A DNA stretch of 11,279 bases, taken from a virus. Its lineage: Duplodnaviria; Heunggongvirae; Uroviricota; Caudoviricetes. The notes beneath the pieces were generated by a model. That model was given only the letters and a program-made list of their open reading frames with translations. It was not told where the DNA came from and searched no databases. The stretch spans positions 1-11,279 of the IMG/VR virus record IMGVR_UViG_2778261535_000008; one strand, written 5' to 3'. A program made the translations under genes and the position numbers. Below are positions 1 through 11,279 of this stretch, one piece after another. The stretch's first letter is position 1. Each line of letters begins with the position of its first letter.

Positions 1-1056
1 AAATATCAGGTCAGTCAGGGCGAATTATCAACCCTGTCAGAAGCGCAGAAAAAAACGCTTTTACAGAATGCGGCACTCATCGACCAGAAAAAGATTCGTG
101 AGCAGCTTGCCGCGTATGAAAGCAGTCTGGCGGACAGTAATGCCAGTGCCCGTGCATCTGACGACGCGCAGTTGCTGGGATATGGTGAAGGCTCACGGAT
201 GCGTGAACGACTCCAGGAAATGTGGAGTATCCGGCAGGCGTTTGAGCAGAAAAATAACGAGCTGCTGAGACAGTATCAGACCGGAGAAATTGAAGAAGCC
301 CTGTGGAAACAGGAAAAATCGCTGAATGAAAAATATCTGGAAGAGCGTCTCAGCGATCAGCAGGATTATTATGCAAAGGCTGATGCTTTACGCAGTAACT
401 GGAATGCCGGGCTCAAAGAGGGGCTGACGAACTGGGCAGACAGTGCCACTGATTATGCTTCGCAGGCGGCAGATGCTGTCGTTTCCACTATGGACGGGCT
501 GGTATCAAATATTTCCGATGCACTGGCCGGGAATGTTGTGGACTGGAGAAACTGGGGGAGTTCAATTCTCCAGGAAGTTTCAAAAATCCTGATGAACGCG
601 GCAATTGTTAACGGGCTGAAATCACTCTCCGGGACAATGTCGGGAGCGGGGGGATGGATTGGTAGTGTTGGCGACTGGCTTTCCGGTGCAGTAGCGAACG
701 CAAAAGGCGGTGTTTACACATCGGCAAATCTGAGTGCTTACAGTAACACCATTGTGGATACGCCGACGTACTTTGCTTTTGCGAAAGGTGCCGGGCTGAT
801 GGGGGAAGCCGGACCTGAAGCTATCATGCCGCTTACGCGGGCAGCGGACGGTTCTCTTGGGGTCAGGGCTATTGGCAATGTGAATGGTGGTGGCGGATTT
901 GTCTATTCTCCCGTGTATCACATCAATATTCAGAATAAAGGGAGCAATGGCGAGATTGATACGCAGTCAGCCAGGGGGCTGGTGGATCTGATCGACAGCA
1001 GGGTTGTGTCAATTATGCAGTCATCACGTCGGGACGGAGGATTATGCAGTGCCTGA
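1..1056 (+). CDS. H: Tail tape measure protein, C-terminal portion (5'-truncated by the window edge)
   Basis: Frame 1 is open from base 1 to the TGA at 1054-1056; the ORF track reports only the part from the first Met at 172. Gly/Ala/Ser-rich C-terminal region immediately upstream of M-L-K-I-J, as in lambda. Function assigned by position and synteny. Confidence 0.85.
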   Translation, partial: KYQVSQGELSTLSEAQKKTLLQNAALIDQKKIREQLAAYESSLADSNASARASDDAQLLGYGEGSRMRERLQEMWSIRQAFEQKNNELLRQYQTGEIEEALWKQEKSLNEKYLEERLSDQQDYYAKADALRSNWNAGLKEGLTNWADSATDYASQAADAVVSTMDGLVSNISDALAGNVVDWRNWGSSILQEVSKILMNAAIVNGLKSLSGTMSGAGGWIGSVGDWLSGAVANAKGGVYTSANLSAYSNTIVDTPTYFAFAKGAGLMGEAGPEAIMPLTRAADGSLGVRAIGNVNGGGGFVYSPVYHINIQNKGSNGEIDTQSARGLVDLIDSRVVSIMQSSRRDGGLCSA

Positions 1057-1390
1057 ACCTGAAGTTTTTAACTGGATCCCCCGCGAGGGGATGGAGACGA
1101 CACGAAAGCCATCTGTTATTACAGTAAAGTTCGGTGACGGATATGAACAGCGACGGGCTGGTGGTCTGAATGCGGATCTGAAAACCTTTAAACCGGTATT
1201 TCGTGTCACAGATGAATATTCCCGCGCCGCGCTGGACAGTTTTTTATCCCGTCATGCCGGGATGCGTGCTTTTTTGTGGCGCCCGCCAAAACACAACAGG
1301 ACTGTCAGGGTTGTCTGCAGGGAGTGGAGTACTTCGGATAATGCCATGTATACCGATTTTAACTGTACCTTTGAAGAGGTCACTCACTGA
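1049..1390 (+). CDS. M: Minor tail protein M
   Basis: Translation (VPEPEVFNWIPREGMETTRKPSVITVKFGDGYEQR...) matches the lambda gpM family, including the conserved VxFGDGY and FLWxPP segments. Proposed start is the GTG at 1049, 8 nt after a GGAGG at 1036-1040 and overlapping the H stop; the TTG at 1004 given by the ORF track is less likely. Start codon is the uncertain part. Confidence 0.8.
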   Translation: MPEPEVFNWIPREGMETTRKPSVITVKFGDGYEQRRAGGLNADLKTFKPVFRVTDEYSRAALDSFLSRHAGMRAFLWRPPKHNRTVRVVCREWSTSDNAMYTDFNCTFEEVTH

Positions 1391-2088
1391 TGCAGGATAT
1401 ACAACAGGAAACACTGAATGAGTGTACAAAAGCGGAGCAATCCGCACTGGTCGTGCTCTGGGAAGTCGATCTGACAGAAGTCGGTGGCGAGCGTTATTTT
1501 TTCTGTAATGAGCAGAACGAAAAAGGTGAGTCAGTCACCTGGCAGGGGCGGCAGTATCAGGCGTATCCCATTCAGGGGAGCGGATTTGAGATGAACGGCA
1601 AAGGAGCCAGTGCCAGACCAACACTGAAGGTATCTAATCTGCACGGTATGGTCACTGGTATGGCGGAAGATCTGCATAGTCTGGTCGGCGGAACGGTGGT
1701 CCGGCGTAAGGTTTACGCCCGTTTTCTGGATGCGGTGAACTTCGTCAACGGAAACAGCGAAGCCGATCCGGAGCAGGAGGTGATCAGCCGCTGGCGCATC
1801 GAGCAGTGCAGCGAACTGAGCGCGGTCAGTGCCTCTTTTGTGCTGTCCACACCGACGGAAACGGATGGTGCTGTTTTCCCGGGGCGCATCATGCTAGCTA
1901 ATACCTGCACCTGGACCTATCGCGGTGATGAGTGCGGTTATAACGGTCCGGCTGTCGCTGATGAATATGACCAGCCGACGTCCGATATCACGAAGGATAA
2001 ATGCAGCAAATGCCTGAGTGGCTGTAAGTTTCGCAATAATGTCGGCAACTTTGGCGGCTTCCTTTCCATTAACAAACTTTCGCAGTAA
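1390..2088 (+). CDS. L: Minor tail protein L
   Basis: 232-aa product MQDIQQETLNECTKAEQSALVVLWEVDL...GGFLSINKLSQ matches lambda gpL nearly end to end as I recall it, including the C-terminal Cys cluster (CSKCLSGC). ATG overlaps the M stop (TGATG at 1388-1392). Confidence 0.92.
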   Translation: MQDIQQETLNECTKAEQSALVVLWEVDLTEVGGERYFFCNEQNEKGESVTWQGRQYQAYPIQGSGFEMNGKGASARPTLKVSNLHGMVTGMAEDLHSLVGGTVVRRKVYARFLDAVNFVNGNSEADPEQEVISRWRIEQCSELSAVSASFVLSTPTETDGAVFPGRIMLANTCTWTYRGDECGYNGPAVADEYDQPTSDITKDKCSKCLSGCKFRNNVGNFGGFLSINKLSQ

Positions 2089-2093
2089 ATCCC

Positions 2094-2837
2094 ATGACAG
2101 AGACAGAATCAGCGATTCTGGCGCACGCCCGACGATGTGCGCCAGCGGAGTCGTGCGGCTTCGTGGTGAGAACACCGGAGGGGAAAAGATATTTTCCCTG
2201 CGTGAATATCTCCGGTGAGCCGGAGGAGTATTTCCGGATGTCGCCGGAGGACTGGCTGCAGGCAGAGATGCAGGGTGAGATTGTCGCGCTGGTCCACAGC
2301 CATCCCGGTGGTCTGCCCTGGCTGAGTGAAGCCGACCGGCGGCTGCAGGTGCAGAGTGATTTGCCGTGGTGGCTGGTCTGCCGTGGGGAGATTCATAAAT
2401 TCCGCTGTGTGCCGTATCTCACCGGGCGGCGCTTTGAGCACGGGGTGACGGACTGTTACACGCTGTTCCGGGACGCTTACCATCTGGCGGGGATTGAGAT
2501 GCCGGATTTTCACCGCGAGGATGACTGGTGGCGTAACGGTCAGAATCTCTATCTGGATAATCTGGAGGCCACAGGGCTGTATCAGGTGCCGTTGTCAGCG
2601 GCGCAGCCGGGCGATGTGCTGCTGTGCTGTTTTGGTTCATCGGTGCCGAATCATGCCGCCATTTACTGCGGCGACGGCGAGCTGTTGCACCATATTCCTG
2701 AACAACTGAGTAAACGAGAGAGGTATACCGACAAATGGCAGCGACGCACACACTCCCTCTGGCGTCACCGGGCATGGCACGCATCTGCCTTTACGGGGAT
2801 TTACAACGATTTGGCCGCCGCATCGACCTTCGTGTGA
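2094..2837 (+). CDS. K: Tail tip assembly protein K, long form (N-terminal MPN/JAMM domain plus C-terminal NlpC/P60 domain)
   Basis: 247-aa ORF. A JAMM motif HSHPGGLPWLSEAD (HxHx7Sx2D) is encoded at about 2295-2336. NlpC/P60-type Cys (GVTDCYTLF) and His (HAAIYCGDGELLHH) lie downstream. The in-frame ATG at 2238 corresponds to the shorter 199-aa form annotated in lambda. The 3' end overlaps I by 103 nt. Confidence 0.9.
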   Translation: MTETESAILAHARRCAPAESCGFVVRTPEGKRYFPCVNISGEPEEYFRMSPEDWLQAEMQGEIVALVHSHPGGLPWLSEADRRLQVQSDLPWWLVCRGEIHKFRCVPYLTGRRFEHGVTDCYTLFRDAYHLAGIEMPDFHREDDWWRNGQNLYLDNLEATGLYQVPLSAAQPGDVLLCCFGSSVPNHAAIYCGDGELLHHIPEQLSKRERYTDKWQRRTHSLWRHRAWHASAFTGIYNDLAAASTFV

Positions 2838-3382
2838 AAACGGGGGCCGAAGCCATCCGGGCGCTGGCCACGCAGCTTCCGTCGTTTCGCCAGAAACTGA
2901 ATGAGGGCTGGTATCAGGTGCGCATTGCCGGGCGTGATGCAGGCGAAAATGAATTATCTGCCCGTCTTAATGAACCGCTGGTAAACGGCGCAGTGATCCA
3001 CATCGTACCGCGTCTGGCGGGAGCTAAAAGTGGCGGTGTTTTTCAGGCAGTGCTGGGTGCGGCGCTGATTGCGGTGGCATGGTGGAACCCTGTGGGCTGG
3101 CTGGGTGCCGCGGCTGTATCGGGCATGTATGCGGCAGGGGCCAGTATGATCCTGGGCGGTGTGGCTCAGATGCTGGCACCAAAAGCCAGAACTCCCCGCA
3201 CACAGACAACGGATAACGGTAAGCAGAACACCTATTTCTCCTCACTGGATAACATGGTTGCCCAGGGCAATGTCCTGCCTGTTCTGTACGGTGAAATGCG
3301 CGTGGGGTCGCGGGTGGTTTCTCAGGAGATCAGCACGGCAGACGAAGGGGACGGTGGTCAGGTTGTGGTGATTGGTCGCTGA
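2735..3382 (+). CDS. I: Tail tip assembly protein I
   Basis: 215-aa product MAATHTLPLASPGMARICLYGDLQRFGRRIDLRVKTGAEAIRALATQLP...GGQVVVIGR matches the lambda gpI family, with a ubiquitin-like N-terminal region and a hydrophobic Gly/Ala-rich centre. Starts inside the 3' end of K in a different frame, as in lambda. Confidence 0.9.
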   Translation: MAATHTLPLASPGMARICLYGDLQRFGRRIDLRVKTGAEAIRALATQLPSFRQKLNEGWYQVRIAGRDAGENELSARLNEPLVNGAVIHIVPRLAGAKSGGVFQAVLGAALIAVAWWNPVGWLGAAAVSGMYAAGASMILGGVAQMLAPKARTPRTQTTDNGKQNTYFSSLDNMVAQGNVLPVLYGEMRVGSRVVSQEISTADEGDGGQVVVIGR

Positions 3383-3400
3383 TGCAAAATGTTTTATGTG

Positions 3401-3428
3401 AAACCGCCTCCGGGCGGTTTTGTCGTTT
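3401..3428 (+). terminator. Hairpin followed by a T-rich tract between I and J (possible weak terminator or attenuator)
   Basis: aaaccgcc (3401-3408), loop tccg, ggcggttt (3413-3420), then tgtcgttt. Perfect 8-bp stem but the U-tract is interrupted. It sits 15 nt upstream of the J start. Confidence 0.3.
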
Positions 3429-3442
3429 ATGGAGCGTGAGGA

Positions 3443-6400
3443 ATGGGTAAAGGCAGCAGTAAGGGGCATACCCCGCGCGAAGCGAAGGACAACCTGAAGT
3501 CCACGCAGTTACTGAGTGTGATTGATGCCATCAGCGAAGGACCGATTGAAGGTCCGGTGGATGGATTAAAAAGCGTGCTGCTGAACAGTACGCCGGTGCT
3601 GGACAGTGAAGGGAATACCAACATCGCCGGTGTCACGGTGGTGTTCCGGGCAGGTGAGCAGGAGCAGACACCGCCGGAGGGTTTTGAATCCTCCGGATCC
3701 GAGACGGTGCTGGGTACGGAAGTGAAATACGACACGCCGATCACCCGGACCATCACGTCTGCAAACATCGACCGTCTGCGCTTTACCTTCGGTGTGCAGG
3801 CTCTGGTGGAAACCACTTCAAAGGGGGACCGGAATCCGTCGGAAGTCCGCCTGCTGGTTCAGATACAGCGTAACGGTGGCTGGGTGACGGAAAAAGACAT
3901 CACCATTAAGGGCAAAACCACCTCGCAGTATCTGGCCTCGGTGGTGGTGGATAACCTGCCTCCGCGCCCGTTCAATATCCGGATGCGCAGGATGACGCCG
4001 GACAGCACCACAGACCAGCTGCAGAACAAAACGCTCTGGTCGTCATACACCGAAATCATCGATGTGAAACAGTGCTACCCGAACACGGCACTGGTCGGCG
4101 TGCAGGTGGATTCGGAGCAGTTCGGCAGCCAGCAGGTGAGCCGTAATTATCATCTGCGCGGGCGCATTCTGCAGGTGCCGTCGAACTATAACCCGCAGAC
4201 GCGGCAATACAGCGGTATCTGGGACGGGACGTTTAAGCCAGCATACAGCAACAACATGGCCTGGTCTCTGTGGGATATGCTGACCCATCCGCGCTACGGC
4301 ATGGGGAAACGTCTTGGTGCGGCGGATGTGGACAAATGGGCGCTGTATGTCATCGGCCAGCATTGCGATCAGTCGGTGCCGGACGGTTTTGGCGGCACAG
4401 AGCCGCGCATCACCTGTAATGCGTACCTGACCACACAGCGTAAGGCGTGGGATGTTCTCAGTGATTTCTGCTCGGCGATGCGCTGTATGCCGGTATGGAA
4501 CGGGCAGACGCTGACGTTCGTGCAGGACCGACCGTCGGATAAGGTGTGGACCTATAACCGCAGTAATGTGGTGATGCCGGATGATGGCGCGCCGTTCCGC
4601 TACAGCTTCAGCGCCCTGAAGGACCGCCATAATGCCGTTGAGGTGAACTGGATTGACCCGAATAACGGCTGGGAGACGGCGACAGAGCTTGTGGAGGACA
4701 CGCAGGCCATTGCCCGTTACGGTCGTAACGTCACGAAGATGGATGCTTTTGGCTGTACCAGCCGGGGGCAGGCACACCGCGCCGGGCTGTGGCTGATTAA
4801 AACGGAGCTGCTGGAAACGCAGACCGTGGACTTCAGCGTGGGCGCAGAAGGGCTTCGCCATGTACCGGGCGATGTCATTGAAATCTGTGATGATGACTAT
4901 GCGGGTATCAGCATCGGCGGGCGCGTACTGGCGGTGAACAGCCAGACGCGGACACTGACGCTCGACCGTGAAATCACGCTGCCATCCTCCGGCACCACGC
5001 TGATAAGCCTGGTTGACGGACAGGGGAATCCGGTCAGCGTGGAGGTCCAGTCCGTCACCGACGGCGTGAAGGTGAAAGTGAGCCGGGTTCCTGACGGCGT
5101 TGCTGAATACAGCGTGTGGGGGCTGAAGCTGCCGACGCTGCGCCAGCGCCTGTTCCGCTGTGTGAGTATCCGTGAGAACGACGACGGCACGTATGCCATC
5201 ACTGCCGTGCAGCATGTACCGGAAAAAGAAGCCATTGTGGATAACGGGGCGCACTTTGACGGCGACCAGAGCGGCACGGTGAATGGTGTCACGCCGCCAG
5301 CGGTGCAGCACCTGACCGCAGAAGTCACCGCAGACAGCGGGGAATACCAGGTGCTGGCGCGCTGGGATACGCCGAAGGTGGTGAAGGGCGTGAGCTTTAT
5401 GCTTCGCCTGACCGTGGCAGCGGATGACGGCAGTGAGCGGCTGGTCAGCACGGCCCGGACGACGGAAACCACATACCGCTTCAGGCAGCTGGCTCTGGGA
5501 AATTACAGTCTGACAGTCCGGGCGGTAAATGCGTGGGGGCAGCAGGGCGATCCGGCGTCGGTATCGTTCCGGATTGCCGCACCGGCAGCGCCATCGCGGA
5601 TTGAGCTGACGCCGGGCTATTTTCAGATAACCGCCACGCCGCATCTTGCGGTTTATGATCCGACTGTACAGTTTGAGTTCTGGTTCTCGGAAAAGCGGAT
5701 TGCGGATATCAGGCAGGTTGAAACCACAGCCCGCTATCTTGGCACGGCGCTGTACTGGATAGCTGCCAGTATCAATATTAAGCCGGGTCATGATTATTAT
5801 TTTTACGTTCGCAGTGTGAACACCGTTGGCAAATCGGCATTCGTGGAGGCTGTCGGTCGGGCGAGCGATGATGCGGAAGGTTACCTGGATTTTTTCAAAG
5901 GCCAGATAACCGAATCCCATCTCGGCAAGGAGCTGCTGGAAAAAGTCGAGCTGACGGAGGATAACGCCAGCAAACTGGAGGAGTTTTCGAAAGAGTGGAA
6001 AGACGCCAACGATAAATGGAATGCCATGTGGGGCGTCAAAATTGAGCAGACCGAAGACGGCAAACATTATGTCGCGGGGCTTGGCCTTAGTATGGAGGAT
6101 ACGGAGGAAGGCAAACTGAGCCAGTTCCTGGTTGCCGCTAACCGTATCGCGTTTATTGACCCGGCAAACGGGAATGAAACGCCGATGTTTGTGGCGCAGG
6201 GCAACCAGATATTCATGAACGAAGTGTTCCTGAAGTATCTGACGGCTCCCACCATTACCAGTGGCGGCAATCCTCCGGTATTTTCCCTGACACCGGACGG
6301 GCGGCTGACGGCGAAAAATGCCGATATCAGCGGTAACGTGAATGCGAACTCCGGGACGCTCAACAACGTCACGGTAAATGAAAACTGTACGATTAAGGGC

Positions 6401-6856
6401 ATGCTGGAGGCGAACCAGGTCAGAGGTGACTTCGTTAAAGCTGTATCCAAATCATTCCCGAAACAGGCTGGTACGTGGGGTAACACGGAAACACCAAACG
6501 GGACGGTTACAGTCACCATCAGCGATGATCATAACTTTGACCGTCAAATCATTATTCCGCCCATTATCTTTAACGGAATAGCGTATAGCGATCCGGGAAG
6601 TGGTAATAACCCGGGAGGTACAAGATACACGGGTTATGGTTTTGAAGTTCGCAAAAACGGTGTATTAATCGCATCCAGAGAAACTAAAGGGGCCATTCCC
6701 GGTAGCTACAGTGCGGTTATTGATATGCCGAGTGGCAGGGGAAGCGTCACTCTGGAGTTTAAGGTTTTCCATAAAGGCAATCAGTGGGCAGGTAATATCA
6801 CCGACTGTACGGTGATTGTGACCAAAAAAGCCGCTTCCGGCATCAGTATTCGTTGA
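3443..6856 (+). CDS. J: Host specificity protein J (central tail fiber / tip attachment protein)
   Basis: 1137-aa ORF with GGAG at 3431-3434. The N-terminal ~980 aa ([54 protein letters not shown]...) closely match lambda gpJ as I recall it. The C-terminal ~150 aa are divergent (see findings). Confidence 0.95.
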
Positions 6857-6877
6857 AATTGTTATAACCCATATAAG

Positions 6878-6901
6878 GGCACCAGAAATGGTGCCTTTTT
6901 T
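6878..6901 (+). terminator. Rho-independent terminator downstream of J
   Basis: Stem ggcacc (6878-6883), loop agaaat, stem ggtgcc (6890-6895), followed by six T (6896-6901). Confidence 0.6.
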
Positions 6902-6925
6902 ATTGCAGAAAAGCGAGAGGTAATT

Positions 6926-7525
6926 ATGCGTAAACTTTATGCCGCCATTTTTTCCGCAGCCATCTGTCTGGCCGTATCCGGTGCGCCTGCATGGGCATCT
7001 GAACATCAGTCCACGCTGAGCGCGGGGTATCTTCATGCCTCGACGAACGTTCCCGGCAGCGATGATCTTAACGGGATTAACGTGAAATACCGTTATGAGT
7101 TTACGGACACACTGGGGCTGGTGACGTCATTCAGCTATGCAGGAGACAAGAATCGCCAGCTTACCCGTTACAGCGATACCCGCTGGCATGAAGATTCCGT
7201 GCGTAACCGCTGGTTCAGCGTGATGGCGGGGCCGTCTGTGCGCGTGAATGAATGGTTCAGCGCGTATGCGATGGCGGGTATGGCTTACAGCCGTGTTTCG
7301 ACTTTCTCCGGAGATTATATCCGCGTAACTGACAACAAGGGGAAAACGCACGATGTGCTGACCGGAAGTGATGACGGTCGCCACAGCGACACGTCTCTGG
7401 CATGGGGGGCTGGCGTGCAGTTTAACCCGACCGAATCCGTGGCCATTGATATTGCTTATGAAGGTTCCGGCAGTGGCGACTGGCGCACTGACGGTTTCAT
7501 CGTTGGTGTCGGTTATAAATTCTGA
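6926..7525 (+). CDS. lom: Lom, outer membrane beta-barrel protein of the Ail/Lom/PagC family (moron)
   Basis: 199-aa product with an N-terminal signal peptide ([24 protein letters not shown], AxA cleavage motif), alternating amphipathic beta-strand pattern and a C-terminal aromatic residue (GVGYKF). Located between J and stf as in lambda. RBS GAGAGG at 6915-6920. Confidence 0.9.
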
Positions 7526-7551
7526 TTAGCCAGGTAACACAGTGTTATGAC

Positions 7552-7578
7552 AGCCCGCCGGTTCAGGCGGGCTTTTTT
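7552..7578 (+). terminator. Rho-independent terminator downstream of lom
   Basis: Stem agcccgcc (7552-7559), loop ggttca, stem ggcgggct (7566-7573), followed by a T-run (7573-7578). Confidence 0.6.
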
Positions 7579-7589
7579 GTGGAGTGGAT

Positions 7590-9986
7590 ATGGCAGCAGT
7601 AAAAATCTCAGGTGTGCTGAAAGATGGTGCGGGAAAACCAATACAGAACTGCACTATTCAACTGAAGGCAAAGCGTAACAGCACCACGGTACTGGTCAAC
7701 ACAGTGGCCTCTGAAAATCCGGACGAAGCCGGGCGTTACAGCATGGATGTTGAGTATGGCCAGTACAGCGTCACCCTGCTGGTTGAAGGTTTTCCGCCTT
7801 CACATGCCGGGACCATTACCGTCTATGAAGGTTCCAGACCAGGTACGCTGAATGATTTTCTCGGTGCCATGACGGAAGATGATGTCATGCCGGAGGCATT
7901 GCGTCGTTTTGAGGAAATGGTGGAAGAAGCGGCACGCAACGCCGAAGCCGCCTCTCAGAGCGCAACGGCGGCAAAGAAATCCGAAACTGCAGCGGCATCA
8001 TCGAAGAACGCGGCGAAAACCTCAGAAACGAATGCAGCTAATAGTGCACAGGCGGCAGCGGCCTCGCAGACTGCATCGGCAAACTCCGCGACAGCAGCCA
8101 AAAAATCAGAAACCAACGCGAAAAACAGCGAGACAGCCGCAAAGACGAGCGAAACCAACGCAAAGTCCAGCCAGACGGCAGCGAAAACCAGCGAAACGAA
8201 TGCCAAAGCCAGTGAAACTGCAGCGAAAAATAGCCAGAATGCAGCAGCCGAAAGCGAGAGCGCGGCAGCCGGTTCTGCGACTTCAGCAGCCGGATCAGCA
8301 ACTGCTGCGGCTAACAGTCAGAAAGCAGCGAAGACGAGCGAAACCAACGCAAAGTCCAGCCAGACGGCAGCGAAGACCAGCGAAACGAATGCTAAAGCCA
8401 GCGAAACTGCGGCGAAAAACAGTCAGGATGCAGCAGCCCAAAGCGAGAGTGCCGCAGCTGGTTCTGCAAGTGCGGCGGCTGCTTCTGCCACTGCATCAGC
8501 CAACAGTCAAAAAGCTGCAAAAACCAGTGAAACCAATGCAAAGACAAGCGAGACTGCAGCGGCGAAATCGGCGCAAGCATCGGCAGCAAGCCAGACAGCA
8601 GCTAAAGCAAGTGAAGACGCAGCCAGGGAGTATGCAAGCCAGGCTGCAGAGCCGTATAAACAAGTTTTGCAGCCCCTGCCTGATGTGTGGATACCGTTTA
8701 ACGATTCACTGGAAATGATTACTGGTTTCGCTCCTGGTTATAAAAAAGTAACTATCGGTGATGATGTTATTACTTTTCCATCAGAGAAAGTTGTATCTTT
8801 CACCCGCTCCACTTCTGCAACGTATATAAATAAATCAGGTTCATTTACTTTTGCAGAAATTAATGAACCGCGCTTTGAAAAGGAAGGTTTATTAATTGAA
8901 GGTCAGAGGACAAATACATTTACGAATAGCAACAATCCTTCATTATGGAACTATGACGACAAGAATATAGAAATAACCACATCGGTTGATGAATATGGTT
9001 TTAAATATGGGTTGTTCGATGTAAAGGAAACATCAACCACTGAAAGGGCGACGATAATATCTACTGGATACAGCAGGGTTATTGATGTTGCTGCAAATGA
9101 ATCTGTTACCTTGTCCTGTAGGGTTAAGAAGATAAATGGAGAAGGTATTATAACGTTAAGACCCAGAATATCTTTCGTTAACGATAACGGCACAAGCAAC
9201 ACGCTGGTAGCTGGTTCCTACATAGATTGCGAAACTGGTGATGTTTTAGGTTTTTCTGGTGGAGATGCTGTAAATCATGTCATATACAGAGAAGCTAACG
9301 GATGGTTACGCGTCGAATTTACATATAAATCACCAGATGCAAAAAGTATGTATGGGCGCTTTGAAATGGGAGCAGATAAAAGGGCGATCAAAAAAGGCGA
9401 TCAGATAATGTTTACTACGCCACAATTTGAAAAAGGATCGTGTGCATCATCATTTATCGTTACATCAGATGTGGCAGTTACACGGGCTAGTGACGTGGTA
9501 ATAATGCCAATAAGACTGAACTGGTCAACGCCTCCGTTAAGCGTTCTTATGGAAGTTAATATCAACTGGGACAAAATGCCAAACAGTGAAGGTTCAGCAA
9601 GGCTTCTTAACGTGTCAATAACTGGCGCAACAACGGATGTTGCTGATGAAAGTTATATGTATTTTGGTTTTACCTCTGGAGGCGCGCGCTCAATTATAAC
9701 TAACGGAAAAGGAACAAAGACCGAGTATAAAGCCTACTGTAACAGGACAACCCGCAGGTTTATTGCTGGATTTAAGTTTACAGAGCAGAAAGAATTGCGT
9801 GCTGTTATAAACGGTAACTTTGGCGCTGTTGGTGTATCACAACACACAAGACAACGTTATACAGAAGGGCCAATAAATATAGGCGGTCAATCAATATCAG
9901 GTAACAGGCATTTATTTGGACACGTACGCAATTTACGTATCTGGCATAAGGAACTGACAGATGCACAAATGGGAGAAAGAATATAA
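7590..9986 (+). CDS. stf: Side tail fiber protein (Stf-like): conserved N-terminal anchor, Ala/Ser/Thr/Lys-rich repeat shaft, divergent distal module with a LamG/ConA-like C-terminus
   Basis: ATG at 7590 is preferred over the GTG at 7584 used by the ORF track; GGAG at 7581-7584. N-terminus MAAVKISGVLKDGAGKPIQNCTIQLKAKRNSTTVLVNTVASENPDEAGRYSMDVEYGQYSV...HAGTITVYE matches the lambda Stf N-terminus as I recall it. The C-terminal motif LFGHVRNLRIWHKELTDAQM resembles the terminal strand signature of Laminin_G_3 / concanavalin-A-like jelly-roll domains. Confidence 0.85.
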   Translation: MAAVKISGVLKDGAGKPIQNCTIQLKAKRNSTTVLVNTVASENPDEAGRYSMDVEYGQYSVTLLVEGFPPSHAGTITVYEGSRPGTLNDFLGAMTEDDVMPEALRRFEEMVEEAARNAEAASQSATAAKKSETAAASSKNAAKTSETNAANSAQAAAASQTASANSATAAKKSETNAKNSETAAKTSETNAKSSQTAAKTSETNAKASETAAKNSQNAAAESESAAAGSATSAAGSATAAANSQKAAKTSETNAKSSQTAAKTSETNAKASETAAKNSQDAAAQSESAAAGSASAAAASATASANSQKAAKTSETNAKTSETAAAKSAQASAASQTAAKASEDAAREYASQAAEPYKQVLQPLPDVWIPFNDSLEMITGFAPGYKKVTIGDDVITFPSEKVVSFTRSTSATYINKSGSFTFAEINEPRFEKEGLLIEGQRTNTFTNSNNPSLWNYDDKNIEITTSVDEYGFKYGLFDVKETSTTERATIISTGYSRVIDVAANESVTLSCRVKKINGEGIITLRPRISFVNDNGTSNTLVAGSYIDCETGDVLGFSGGDAVNHVIYREANGWLRVEFTYKSPDAKSMYGRFEMGADKRAIKKGDQIMFTTPQFEKGSCASSFIVTSDVAVTRASDVVIMPIRLNWSTPPLSVLMEVNINWDKMPNSEGSARLLNVSITGATTDVADESYMYFGFTSGGARSIITNGKGTKTEYKAYCNRTTRRFIAGFKFTEQKELRAVINGNFGAVGVSQHTRQRYTEGPINIGGQSISGNRHLFGHVRNLRIWHKELTDAQMGERI
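8142..8519 (+). repeat. In-frame tandem duplication, 2 x 189 bp (63 codons), within the stf shaft
   Basis: Unit 1 (8142-8330) and unit 2 (8331-8519) both begin aagacgagcgaaaccaacgcaaagtccagccagacggcagcga and stay roughly 90% identical by eye. They encode AKTSETNAKSSQTAAKTSETNAKASETAAKNSQ...SQKA twice. Degenerate shorter copies of the same motif flank both sides (about 7960-8600). Confidence 0.8.
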
Positions 9987-10267
9987 TGCGAGACTTAACC
10001 CTCAAATTCATAAACAAGGCCGACTTTTCGGCCTTTATGGATAGCATTGGTTATGACGATGACGAGGTGATGCAGAACAATGTTCTCATTGATGTGATAG
10101 GTAACGTGTACAAAGAAACCGGAGAAATTACTGAAGATGGCGAGCCGGTATGTGTTAAGGAAGACGGATATTTTGTAAACGTGCGCATCATTAATGATGT
10201 GAAAACACCGTCAATATTCGATGAATACGCGGTTGTTGTTGAGCATCAACTTCGTGGCTGGATGTGA
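9986..10267 (+). CDS. Hypothetical small acidic protein, translationally coupled to stf (possible fiber accessory or assembly factor)
   Basis: 93-aa ORF whose ATG overlaps the stf stop (TAATG at 9984-9988). Asp/Glu-rich; I recognise no family. It occupies the slot where lambda has tfa but shows no resemblance to lambda Tfa. Confidence 0.5.
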   Translation: MRDLTLKFINKADFSAFMDSIGYDDDEVMQNNVLIDVIGNVYKETGEITEDGEPVCVKEDGYFVNVRIINDVKTPSIFDEYAVVVEHQLRGWM

Positions 10268-10276
10268 GGGAGACAA

Positions 10277-10966
10277 ATGGCTACATCGACAGTAATTCCA
10301 GGAGATATCACCACGCTAAAGGGAGATGTCAGTAAAACTAAGGAAGATATTTCCTCAATTAACGGAAAAGTATCAACGCTTCAGATTGATATGACCAGTG
10401 CAAAGCAGGATATCAGCACCAGATACACAAAAACTGAAGTTGATAATAAGCTGAAAAACAAAGTGGAAGCGAACGATCTGGAAAGCGGTCGTTATGGCGG
10501 TGATTTTTACCCGCTGACAGGTCGTGAAGCGTTTTATTTATGGAATTTGGCCACGACTACAGCGGCGGCAAACCTTTATCTTAATCCTGACCCCGCAATT
10601 TCGTCTGTACTGCGGTCAACATCGTCTATTCGCTATAAACATTCAGTAGAGACGATAGATTCAGAGCACGCCGATCTCATTTTCAAGATGCGCCCTGTGT
10701 GGTACAGGTCGCAATGCGAAAATGACAGGCGTGACTGGGGATTCTACGGGTTGATTGCCGAGGAAGTAGGAGAAATTGCCCCTCAGTTTGTACACTGGCG
10801 ACCAGCTAACGAGAATGATGCTCCTGAAGCTATTTCCAGCAATGGCCTTGTAGCCGAAGGTGTAATGTACGAACGTCTGGTTGTTCCACTGATTCACCAT
10901 ATCCAGAAACTGACTGAAAGAGTTGAAGAACTTGAGTCAGAATTAAAGTTGTTATCAACTTCCTGA
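10277..10966 (+). CDS. Short fiber-like protein with N-terminal coiled-coil region and C-terminal intramolecular chaperone (peptidase S74-like) auto-processing domain
   Basis: 229-aa ORF with GGAG at 10269-10272. N-terminal 70 aa are heptad-like and Ser/Thr/Lys-rich. The C-terminal 110 aa (SSIRYKHSVETIDSEHADLIFKMRPVWYR...WGFYGLIAEEVGEIAPQFV...EGVMYERLVVPLIHHIQKLTERVEELESELKLL) match the conserved pattern of the chaperone-of-endosialidase domain: Ser...Lys dyad, GxIAQEV-like core, Y-x-x-L-V/I-P-L-I and a terminal coiled coil. Confidence 0.65.
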   Translation: MATSTVIPGDITTLKGDVSKTKEDISSINGKVSTLQIDMTSAKQDISTRYTKTEVDNKLKNKVEANDLESGRYGGDFYPLTGREAFYLWNLATTTAAANLYLNPDPAISSVLRSTSSIRYKHSVETIDSEHADLIFKMRPVWYRSQCENDRRDWGFYGLIAEEVGEIAPQFVHWRPANENDAPEAISSNGLVAEGVMYERLVVPLIHHIQKLTERVEELESELKLLSTS

Positions 10967-10991
10967 AGCGATATCGGATAAAGGAGGAGTA

Positions 10992-11279
10992 ATGGATATA
11001 AGCCCCTTACTTCATGCGCTTTGTGCTGTGGCTGCGCAGGTACTGATTGGCCTTTTTACCGGAAACTGGGCTTACGGTGCGATAGCTGGTTGTTCGTTCT
11101 TCATTGCGCGCGAACACACCCAGGCAGAATATCGCTGGATTGAAATGTTCGGACATGGCAAGCGTATGAATATGCCGTGGTGGGGCGGTTTTGATCCACG
11201 CGCGTGGGATGTAGCAAGTCTGATGGATTTTTCTGTGCCGGTGGTGGCGTGTATTCTGGTCTGGCTGTTGATCCGTTGA
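10992..11279 (+). CDS. Hypothetical small membrane protein, possible lipoprotein (candidate moron)
   Basis: 95-aa ORF with a strong RBS AAGGAGG at 10981-10987; the stop is the last codon of the window. Two hydrophobic segments (residues about 5-38 and 80-94). A lipobox-like IAGC motif at residues 31-34 follows the first segment. No family recognised. Confidence 0.45.
   Translation: MDISPLLHALCAVAAQVLIGLFTGNWAYGAIAGCSFFIAREHTQAEYRWIEMFGHGKRMNMPWWGGFDPRAWDVASLMDFSVPVVACILVWLLIR

Follow-up and report, generated by a model that had tools for sequence, protein, structure and literature searches.

The subject of the present study is the last gene in a stretch of 11,279 nucleotides (nt) of viral DNA (Caudoviricetes), namely positions 1 to 11,279 of the IMG/VR record IMGVR_UViG_2778261535_000008, which as a whole is called the window below. 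Its product of 95 amino acids (aa) can be assigned by its sequence to PHROG 1443, a catalogued family lacking an assigned function. On the basis of a structure prediction, this protein would, with high confidence, be an integral protein of the cytoplasmic membrane with three helices, and not a lipoprotein. The gene is real and under purifying selection, it is the final gene of the late (tail) operon with a strong ribosome-binding site (RBS) of its own, and it is a discrete mosaic module that holds the 3' flank of the receptor-binding-protein genes while those change. As to what the protein does, our best explanation is that it would be non-structural cargo that works in the inner membrane of the host to the benefit of the lysogen, most likely as an exclusion factor. 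This functional proposal is a tentative one, to which we give somewhat less than an even chance of being correct.

The gene and its translation signal are located as follows:

10992-11279, + strand: coding sequence of the 95-aa membrane protein (PHROG 1443; UniRef name 'Ybl63'), with ATG at 10992 and TGA at 11277-11279.
10981-10987, + strand: Shine-Dalgarno sequence AAGGAGG, read from the sequence, 4 nt 5' of the ATG.

The TGA makes up the final three bases of the window. The AAGGAGG begins 14 nt past the stop codon (10964-10966) of the preceding 229-aa gene, and the intergenic gap from that gene to the 95-codon open reading frame (ORF) is 25 nt. The GC content of the ORF is 0.521, as compared to 0.445 for the 229-aa gene, 0.422 for a 93-aa gene further upstream and 0.401 for the C-terminal half of the side tail fibre gene stf. 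An earlier note on this DNA, made from the letters alone, had pointed out the ORF with its AAGGAGG site and the shift in GC content, and both are confirmed here. A base composition that differs from that of the neighbours, as is typical of a moron, is thus found for the gene, with a junction at 10980.

The product (MDISPLLHALCAVAAQVLIGLFTGNWAYGAIAGCSFFIAREHTQAEYRWIEMFGHGKRMNMPWWGGFDPRAWDVASLMDFSVPVVACILVWLLIR) has hydrophobic stretches at approximately residues 4-39 and 74-94, and the motif I31-A32-G33-C34 is encoded at 11082-11093; the N- and C-terminal hydrophobic segments and the IAGC motif had also been correctly recognised before. AlphaFold2, run on an alignment of 86 sequences (alignment A1), gave a model with a mean predicted local distance difference test score of 94 and a predicted template modelling score of 0.76. 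The segments of the model, together with the conserved part of the sequence, correspond to the following positions:

11001-11060, + strand: helix 1, residues 4-23, predicted transmembrane, holding His8 and Gln16 (AlphaFold2).
11067-11147, + strand: helix 2, residues 26-52, the hydrophobic first half of which (26-39) holds the IAGC motif (AlphaFold2).
11109-11210, + strand: conserved extramembrane segment, residues 40-73, with the pattern G-x-G-K-R-x-N-M-P-W-W-G-G-F-D-x-R-x-W (conservation).
11211-11273, + strand: helix 3, residues 74-94, holding Ser76, Asp79 (90% conserved) and Pro83 (98%) (AlphaFold2, hydropathy).

Helices 1 and 2 are predicted to form a hairpin with a two-residue turn (G24-N25), and residues 53-73 a structured loop between helices 2 and 3. 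The hydrophobicity of helix 2 ends at A39, the second half of the helix being polar (R40-E41-H-T-Q44-A45-E46-Y47-R48-W49), and helix 3 is the most hydrophobic segment of the protein. The inner-membrane location is thus a prediction, to which the AlphaFold helices, the hydropathy and a TMHMM note in the record of phage 21 contribute. As a fallback, the earlier note had suggested a two-helix inner membrane protein. The membrane protein part of that suggestion stands, while the number of helices does not, since three are predicted, the first two of them as the hairpin.

The conservation of the sequence is remarkably high for a protein of this size. Among 214 sequences, it amounts to 97% for H8, 100% for R40, 99% for E41, 97% for Q44, 98% for A45, 98% for E46, 90% for Y47, 93% for R48, 93% for R58, 88% for P62 and 98% for W72. 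In the set of 86 sequences, Asp2 is invariant, Gln16, Gly20 and Trp26 are more than 90% conserved, and the stretch N60-M-P-W-W-G-G-F-D68 is near-invariant. Going by simple hairpin geometry, which would set His8 opposite R40/E41 and let D79 enter from the same side, His8, Arg40/Glu41 and Asp79 should form one polar cluster at one boundary of the membrane.

We now consider whether the protein could be a lipoprotein, since the earlier note had read the IAGC motif as lipobox-like. The motif does fit the pattern [LVI][ASTVI][GAS]C, which is the sole lipoprotein feature present, and in the phage 21 record SignalP is cited for a 29-aa signal sequence. However, the N-terminus reads M-D-I-S-P, there is no Lys or Arg (K/R) in residues 1-39, and as many as 33 residues precede the cysteine, whereas a lipoprotein signal has a positively charged n-region ahead of an h-region of 7-22 residues. 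The conserved His8 and Gln16 would furthermore be located inside the would-be signal peptide, and cleaved signal peptides do not carry conserved polar residues. Cys34 itself is present in 30 of 61 species-level loci, its place being taken in the other 31 by Ser (16), Ala (8), Ile (4) or further residues. Finally, in the AlphaFold model, a bundle of three helices, IAGC is found halfway along helix 2, and there is a second strongly hydrophobic helix at the C-terminus. Of the four sequence features expected of a lipoprotein or Cor-type protein, three are thus lacking, and the lipobox reading is not supported.

Concerning the orientation in the membrane, we favour a topology with the N-terminus outside, the turn between helices 1 and 2 inside, the loop 40-73 outside, i.e. 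in the periplasm, and the C-terminus inside. The reason is that the variable K/R of the homologues gather in the turn (mean 0.93, e.g. LKWRRW, ITRGRW and LRNW) and in the C-terminal tail (mean 2.5 and up to 7, e.g. RAGRTRQSRRRR and NRRRPRRR), the K/R of the loop being conserved residues (R40, R48, K57/R58 and R70). In the window copy, the C-terminal tail consists of a single Arg. The TMHMM note in the phage 21 record reads '2 TMDs, N-in, C-in', and would agree with a cytoplasmic C-terminus and a periplasmic loop, depending on which segments are called.

The assignment to the family is based on the PHROG 1443 profile hidden Markov model (HMM), in which residues 1-95 align to profile positions 1-95 of 97 with an E-value of 2.2e-56. 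At E <= 0.1, phrog_1443 and phrog_34165 are the only PHROG matches, and both are of unknown function. A total of 562 homologues were found among 5.8 billion proteins searched, all of them labelled 'hypothetical' and devoid of Pfam domains. When 1.84 billion representatives were searched with a profile, 428 clusters (50% identity) with sizes of ca 60-146 aa were obtained, and the clusters listed from this search are stand-alone proteins without fusions to known domains. The exact protein sequence is present in NCBI E. coli records as 'hypothetical protein', and 'Ybl63' is the sole name that any source gives to a relative. The ratio of nonsynonymous to synonymous substitution rates (dN/dS) against 40 distinct Escherichia alleles has a mean of 0.17.

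The gene is common in E. coli. The ORF together with its RBS is present in 1900 of 5426 complete genomes (35%) at 90-95% DNA identity, with a median of 2 and a maximum of 7 copies per carrying genome, and the E. coli copies that we have examined are all in prophage contexts. In addition, 59 Escherichia phage records carry the ORF, among them those of phage 21, mEp460 and numerous wild lambda-like phages. A motif scan with one genome per species gave 70 loci in gamma-, beta-, alpha- and delta-proteobacteria; the gamma-, beta- and alpha-proteobacterial copies are 45-65% identical to each other.

No known family or fold could be connected to the protein. Pfam gave no match below E 0.09, GtrA (PF04138) included, and the NCBIfam and PADLOC scans gave nothing significant. 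A sequence-profile search of the PDB returned 0 matches at E <= 10, and Foldseek against the PDB and BFVD nothing below E 0.5. When the neighbouring genes of 61 species-level loci were clustered, no partner gene was found to be common beyond local groups. Literature searches for the gene, 'Ybl63', phage 21, side tail fibre and exclusion returned nothing on the PHROG 1443/'Ybl63' gene; a paper on the small RNA svsR (PMC12803456) was considered and found to be unrelated to it. A paper on SieA (PMC10883804) was among those listed.

Turning to the genomic context, the window represents the right end of a lambdoid late operon, with the following genes upstream of the membrane-protein gene:

3443-6856: J, upstream context gene.
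6926-7525: lom, with an Ail/Lom match (E 3e-119).
7584-9986, + strand: side tail fibre gene stf (800 aa), a relative of which, in a 96.8%-identical E. coli locus, is annotated 'prophage tail fiber N-terminal domain-containing protein'.
9986-10267, + strand: gene of a 93-aa acidic protein, PHROG 1361; its start overlaps the stf stop.
10277-10966, + strand: gene of a 229-aa short tail-fibre-like protein with a Peptidase_S74 intramolecular chaperone domain (PF13884, E 3.5e-06).

The DNA homology of the window with phage 21 and the wild lambda-like phages starts at 10980, i.e. at the RBS, and the RBS and the ORF therefore make up a mosaic module of their own that follows a variable fibre cassette. 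The counterparts at this position in phage 21, the wild lambda-like phages and the Rac prophage of BL21 are 92-94% identical to it. The earlier note had advised looking beyond the window for a promoter or terminator that would make the gene an independent unit. A crude consensus scan found neither a promoter-like site on the + strand at 9983-11279 nor a terminator there, and no + strand terminator-like site within ca 890 nt past the stop in the 96.8%-identical locus (L002); nothing in these scans exceeded the shuffled expectation. No RNA family of Rfam was found anywhere in the window.

In Escherichia lambdoid phages and prophages the gene closes the late strand. The order in phage 21 is stf, a 92-aa gene and the membrane-protein gene, followed by a strand switch to sitABCD; this copy is located at ca 21 kb in the genome, where the tail genes end, and its product is recorded as CPT_21_24, a 'putative membrane protein'. 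As a separate observation, the genes that come directly past it on the opposite strand (locus L001, 5399-8848) encode a complete SitABCD iron/manganese ABC transporter, which is a large cargo block of the b region. A five-gene order identical to that of the window is seen in IdasGreatGrand and in E. coli AVS0501, and in the latter the 95-aa gene is the final prophage gene, with the host gene zinT coming next. In the cryptic Rac prophage of BL21, the 92-aa gene and the membrane-protein gene have both stayed intact, although the fibre gene and the tfa that flank them are truncated.

The position behind receptor-binding genes is found in other types of phages as well. In the P22-like Lederbergvirus JEP4, the gene overlaps the stop of the tailspike gene and int comes next, and in the P22-like 611R6 the order is tailspike, O-acetylase, fibre remnant, membrane-protein gene and int. 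In a P2/HP1-like Leclercia prophage the gene begins at the base after the stop of a 939-aa tail fibre of S74 type, and in a Desulfovibrio prophage it begins one base past a tailspike gene. A Halomonas prophage has it near a tail-fibre gene, while in Comamonas, Acidovorax and related prophages it comes after a J-like tip protein and a small protein. The gene adjoins several fibres with S74 chaperones, but it occurs also without them.

Two apparently virulent phages carry decayed remnants of the gene. In E. coli phage 6947 there is a truncated, unannotated remnant directly past a receptor-binding gene (a 51-aa ORF; locus L005, 3965-4120), and in the Salmonella Kuttervirus KFSST3 a remnant after the tailspike gene (a 41-aa ORF ending at the position of Cys34; locus L162, 4980-5105). 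This suggests that exchanges of the 3' ends of receptor-binding genes carry the gene with them, and that it then decays. Because of these remnants, the gene is probably needless for lytic growth as such.

Copies outside phages were also found. Three Silvania genomes have an intact gene between a PP-loop gene and ompN-nifJ:

Loci L091, L100 and L103 (L091 at ca 6449-12933): Silvania orphan copies, preceded or followed by dbpA-like and ttcA-like PP-loop genes and bordered at the opposite end by ompN and nifJ.

The Silvania OmpN is 82% identical to the OmpN of BL21, and the PP-loop gene is taken to be ttcA-like from its sequence. Since ompN-nifJ flank Rac in E. coli B, and since Rac lies between ttcA and the ompN-nifJ region, the Silvania copy is probably all that survives of a prophage that was otherwise lost. 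In Leclercia, the genes downstream are conserved and those upstream vary, and in Leclercia tamurae a bor homologue adjoins the gene. The copies in Enterobacteriaceae that are nominally chromosomal thus look like prophage relics. In four Aeromonas species, the gene comes after a pirin gene, among polB, a RIO1 kinase gene and lipid A acyltransferase genes, and no phage genes are nearby. The C-terminal tails of the orphan copies are longer and more basic than those of the phage copies.

With these results at hand, we can discuss the function. We infer that the protein is not a component of the virion or of its assembly, because it is polytopic, independent of the type of fibre and persists alone. 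The observation made in the earlier note, of a small hydrophobic protein just past the fibre cluster, is supported, and the protein does look non-structural. The persistence in cryptic prophages and as orphans indicates a benefit for the cell. Here we refer to the intact copy in the Rac prophage of BL21, the Silvania orphans, the bor neighbour, the conserved non-phage site in Aeromonas and the prevalence in E. coli, and also to the decay of the gene in the two apparently virulent phages. The constancy of the gene next to changing fibres argues, in turn, for a target that is independent of the receptor. Its most likely action would be to stop infecting phages at a membrane step, whatever their receptor, i.e. 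superinfection exclusion of the inner-membrane type, and its conserved periplasmic surface would bind a conserved component of the envelope or of the phage. The parts of this proposal are not equally probable. That the gene has an accessory role of benefit to the lysogen is, in our estimate, an even bet. Exclusion specifically, which is argued by analogy, is possible, although we would sooner expect it to be wrong than right. It is doubtful that PHROG 1443/'Ybl63' as a whole would be a new and widespread family of single-gene exclusion or defence proteins, presenting a generic, receptor-independent barrier to genome entry or to some other conserved envelope step, and placed intact behind the receptor-binding genes of three morphotypes (lambda-like, P22-like and P2/HP1-like).

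Several points weigh against the proposal. The literature searches gave no functional datum on PHROG 1443/'Ybl63', no transcript or phenotype record and no paper that mentions the protein, and there is no match to an annotated exclusion PHROG or to a PADLOC model. The crude consensus scans found no sigma-70-like promoter or intrinsic terminator around the gene, and the 25-nt gap argues for expression from the late operon, unlike what a prophage-expressed exclusion gene needs. Exclusion proteins typically evolve fast, whereas a loop as strongly conserved as this one would look more at home in an enzyme, in a metal site or in one of the subunits of a conserved machine. When all K/R are counted, the loop 40-73 is the most basic segment (5.4 K+R), which leaves the in/out orientation ambiguous and, taken alone, would suggest a cytoplasmic loop. 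As regards the context, the copies in Sphingomonadales are located among heterogeneous housekeeping genes, with ligA upstream in three genomes. Furthermore, Aeromonas jumbo phages keep an intact 87-aa copy beside a terminase gene, the copy being placed between this intein-bearing gene and a fibre gene. We note separately that the upstream gene in Aeromonas phage ACP1 (locus L004, 530-3907) encodes a 1125-aa protein annotated with an intein splicing domain, which looks like a terminase large subunit split by an intein.

Some of these points would fit better with a different scenario, in which phages carry a general bacterial membrane protein (e.g. a small protein that binds metals or ions, a mini-enzyme, or part of a conserved envelope machine) that alters the envelope physiology of the host and is unrelated to other phages. 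From gamma- to alpha-proteobacteria there is hardly any variation in the Trp-rich loop or in the polar cluster of His8, Arg40, Glu41, Glu46 and Asp79, AlphaFold returned a compact model of very high confidence, and non-phage chromosomal contexts exist in Aeromonas and Sphingomonadales. On the other hand, no similarity to a Pfam, NCBIfam or PDB family or fold was found, and no conserved neighbour that would indicate a pathway. Moreover, the genome representing the species E. coli has no homologue in the motif scan, the examined E. coli copies being all in prophages, and the relic-like appearance of the Enterobacteriaceae copies is a further point against it. We consider this scenario unlikely. 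The motifs of the CPBP/CAAX proteases, PAP2 and BacA-like proteins were also considered, and they do not appear to fit.

Another option is that the gene is an accessory of lysogenic conversion, which would interfere with or modify a step with a lipid-linked glycan (O-antigen, the core of lipopolysaccharide (LPS) or enterobacterial common antigen) at the periplasmic face of the inner membrane, much like the small membrane peptides and the Gtr or acetylase genes found behind tailspike genes elsewhere. The P22-like phages place the gene in the classical conversion slot from tailspike to int, and the copy in 611R6 is located ca 470 nt downstream of the O-acetylase gene, with the short fibre remnant between them. 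In several morphotypes the gene comes after fibres or spikes that bind LPS, a periplasmic location is predicted for the conserved loop, and the lipid A acyltransferase genes in Aeromonas are nearby, which may be a coincidence. However, the machinery of the O-antigen is hypervariable, whereas the 95-aa protein is highly conserved and remains constant beside a changing fibre. It has no match to GtrA or to any other Pfam family, and 95 aa is too small for a transferase alone. Conversion of this kind is accordingly rated as improbable.

One can also imagine that the gene is a passive hitch-hiker, that is, a conserved flank that mainly serves as a homology anchor for the exchange of fibre cassettes and that has no important function here. 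The recombination junction exactly at the RBS would be consistent with this, as would the truncated remnants that travel with the 3' ends of tailspike and fibre genes into unrelated phages. But a mere homology anchor would not keep a conserved reading frame open, and the low dN/dS and the intact ORFs across ca 1900 E. coli genomes and in relics make this explanation quite improbable.

A role in lysis was considered next, where the protein would be a late-expressed membrane protein resembling a class I holin, or a regulator of the holin. The size of ca 95-100 aa, the three helices, the predicted N-out/C-in topology and the basic C-terminal tail in many homologues are in line with this, and expression with the late operon would follow from the 25-nt gap and from the scan, which showed no promoter. 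In prophages of the Comamonas type, the stop of the gene overlaps the start of a multi-transmembrane holin-like gene, which is followed by genes for a membrane protein, a probable endolysin (phrog_3108) and an Rz-like spanin:

Locus L161, 6300-7521; locus L104, 7491-9036; locus L116, 7296-8508: Comamonas-type lysis clusters, each with a 125-132-aa multi-transmembrane protein, a 99-aa membrane protein, lysis genes and an Rz-like spanin.

The third protein in these clusters either belongs to phrog_3108 (183 aa) or has a length of 283 aa and a lysozyme-like motif at its N-terminus. Nevertheless, the phage 21 copy ends the tail genes and the window copy follows tail-fibre genes, and lambdoid and P22-like phages have complete lysis cassettes elsewhere in the genome. 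Orphan copies persist without lysis genes, the long invariant loop of 34 residues is unlike known holins, and the gene decays in the two apparently virulent phages. We therefore regard a lysis function as very unlikely.

The gene could, in principle, also encode a virion protein or an assembly factor for the fibre encoded just upstream. In four phage morphotypes it comes directly after a fibre or spike gene, in many cases with translational coupling between the two, and fibre chaperones are usually encoded immediately downstream of fibre genes. Against this, the protein is polytopic in the membrane, the same sequence occurs beside unrelated fibres, the gene persists without any fibre gene, and in 6947 and KFSST3 it is a decayed remnant after a tailspike or fibre gene that is itself intact. 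The chaperone was dropped as a candidate for these reasons, i.e. a membrane protein that is independent of the fibre type, and a fibre factor of any kind is highly unlikely. Finally, an outer-membrane-directed lipoprotein of Cor/Llp type that masks an outer-membrane receptor, a relationship raised in the earlier note, is hardly credible, since apart from the adjacency to receptor-binding genes (shared with cor and llp) and the IAGC motif it has the lipoprotein evidence above against it, and there is no HMM similarity to annotated exclusion families.

Some observations on the neighbouring genes can be reported in their own right. In stf, an imperfect tandem array at 8090-8561 has a period of 189 nt, 2.3 copies and sub-periods of 21 and 42 nt; it encodes units rich in Ala, Ser, Thr, Glu and Lys (…AAKTSETNAKSSQT…), with a very strong AT skew of up to 0.66. 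Near 8600, the GC content of stf drops from ca 0.55 to ca 0.40, as if a conserved N-terminal part were joined there, at a mosaic junction, to a receptor-binding part of low GC content. Two further long ORFs, of 674 aa (4043-6067, - strand, antisense to J) and of 279 aa (7879-8718, + strand), were rejected as genes and are taken as by-products of composition and repeats, the 279-aa ORF being an Arg/Gln/Lys/Pro-rich alternative frame of the stf repeats.

The gene of the 93-aa protein, which has no Pfam match, directly precedes the membrane-protein gene in phage 21, the wild lambda phages and the Rac prophage of BL21. The 93-aa protein is weakly similar to the product of a 95-aa gene upstream of the Comamonas homologue (pairwise BLASTP, E 2e-4). 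The two genes may thus travel as a pair, and the 93-aa protein may be a fibre chaperone. In the window, the 229-aa gene is inserted between the 93-aa and the 95-aa genes, which adjoin in phage 21. Its product is a 'mini-fibre' that consists of a 32-residue tail-fibre N-terminus, a coiled-coil-like stretch and a Peptidase_S74 domain at residues 116-172; it matches the C-terminus of phrog_3299, as well as phrog_4563 over residues 1-32. There seems to be no receptor-binding domain between the N-terminus and the S74 domain, and the E. ruysiae counterpart of the gene has 346 aa.

As to the significance of these results, the gene is present in about one third of the complete E. coli genomes, often in several copies, and in both BL21 and phage 21, yet it has no Pfam family. 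The fixed place behind the receptor-binding genes of unrelated phages, together with the survival as orphans, suggests a selectable function in the envelope. If the protein is an exclusion factor, it would be a common and easily tested determinant of the phage susceptibility of E. coli, which matters for the host range in phage therapy and for the annotation of prophages. If it is not, the present analysis still sets right a tempting error, namely its annotation as a lipoprotein or as Cor-like.

It is instructive to compare the 95-aa protein with known systems. Like Cor (of phi80, N15 and T1) and the Llp of T5, it is a small non-virion protein of the envelope encoded beside receptor-binding genes, and accessory envelope genes such as cor and llp adjoin receptor-binding genes. 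However, Cor and Llp act on the outer-membrane receptor FhuA, Llp being a lipoprotein, whereas the 95-aa protein is predicted to be polytopic in the inner membrane. Unlike these two, it has no usable signal peptide or conserved lipobox cysteine, and its being unchanged while the adjoining fibre changes is a further difference. The gtrABC genes of P22 and the polymerase inhibitors of epsilon15 and D3 occupy the same slot between tailspike and int as the gene does in P22-like phages, but the 95-aa protein is far more conserved across hosts than such O-antigen-specific factors, and GtrA is not matched. The likeness to the cor, llp and gtr class is one of position only, and judging from the sequence and the lipoprotein features the protein belongs to none of them. 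The class I holin S105 of lambda has a similar length of ca 100 aa, three membrane helices and, as is predicted for the present protein, an N-out/C-in topology. Unlike a class I holin gene, the 95-aa gene of lambdoid and P22-like phages is separated from the lysis cassette by a long distance, and it is the Comamonas homologues alone that adjoin lysis genes.

The comparison that underlies our preferred explanation, exclusion at the inner membrane, is that with T4 Imm, P22 SieA and HK97 gp15, which are small inner-membrane proteins that block genome entry. There is no sequence relationship between these and the 95-aa protein, which differs from them by its three helices and long invariant loop. 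Their genes are expressed from the prophage or early in infection, whereas the scan gave no promoter for the 95-aa gene. Common to all of them is that they are small, encoded by phages or prophages and integral to the inner membrane, which for the 95-aa protein is a prediction. Furthermore, HK97 gp15 has a chromosomal homologue, YebO, and PHROG 1443 likewise has chromosomal copies.

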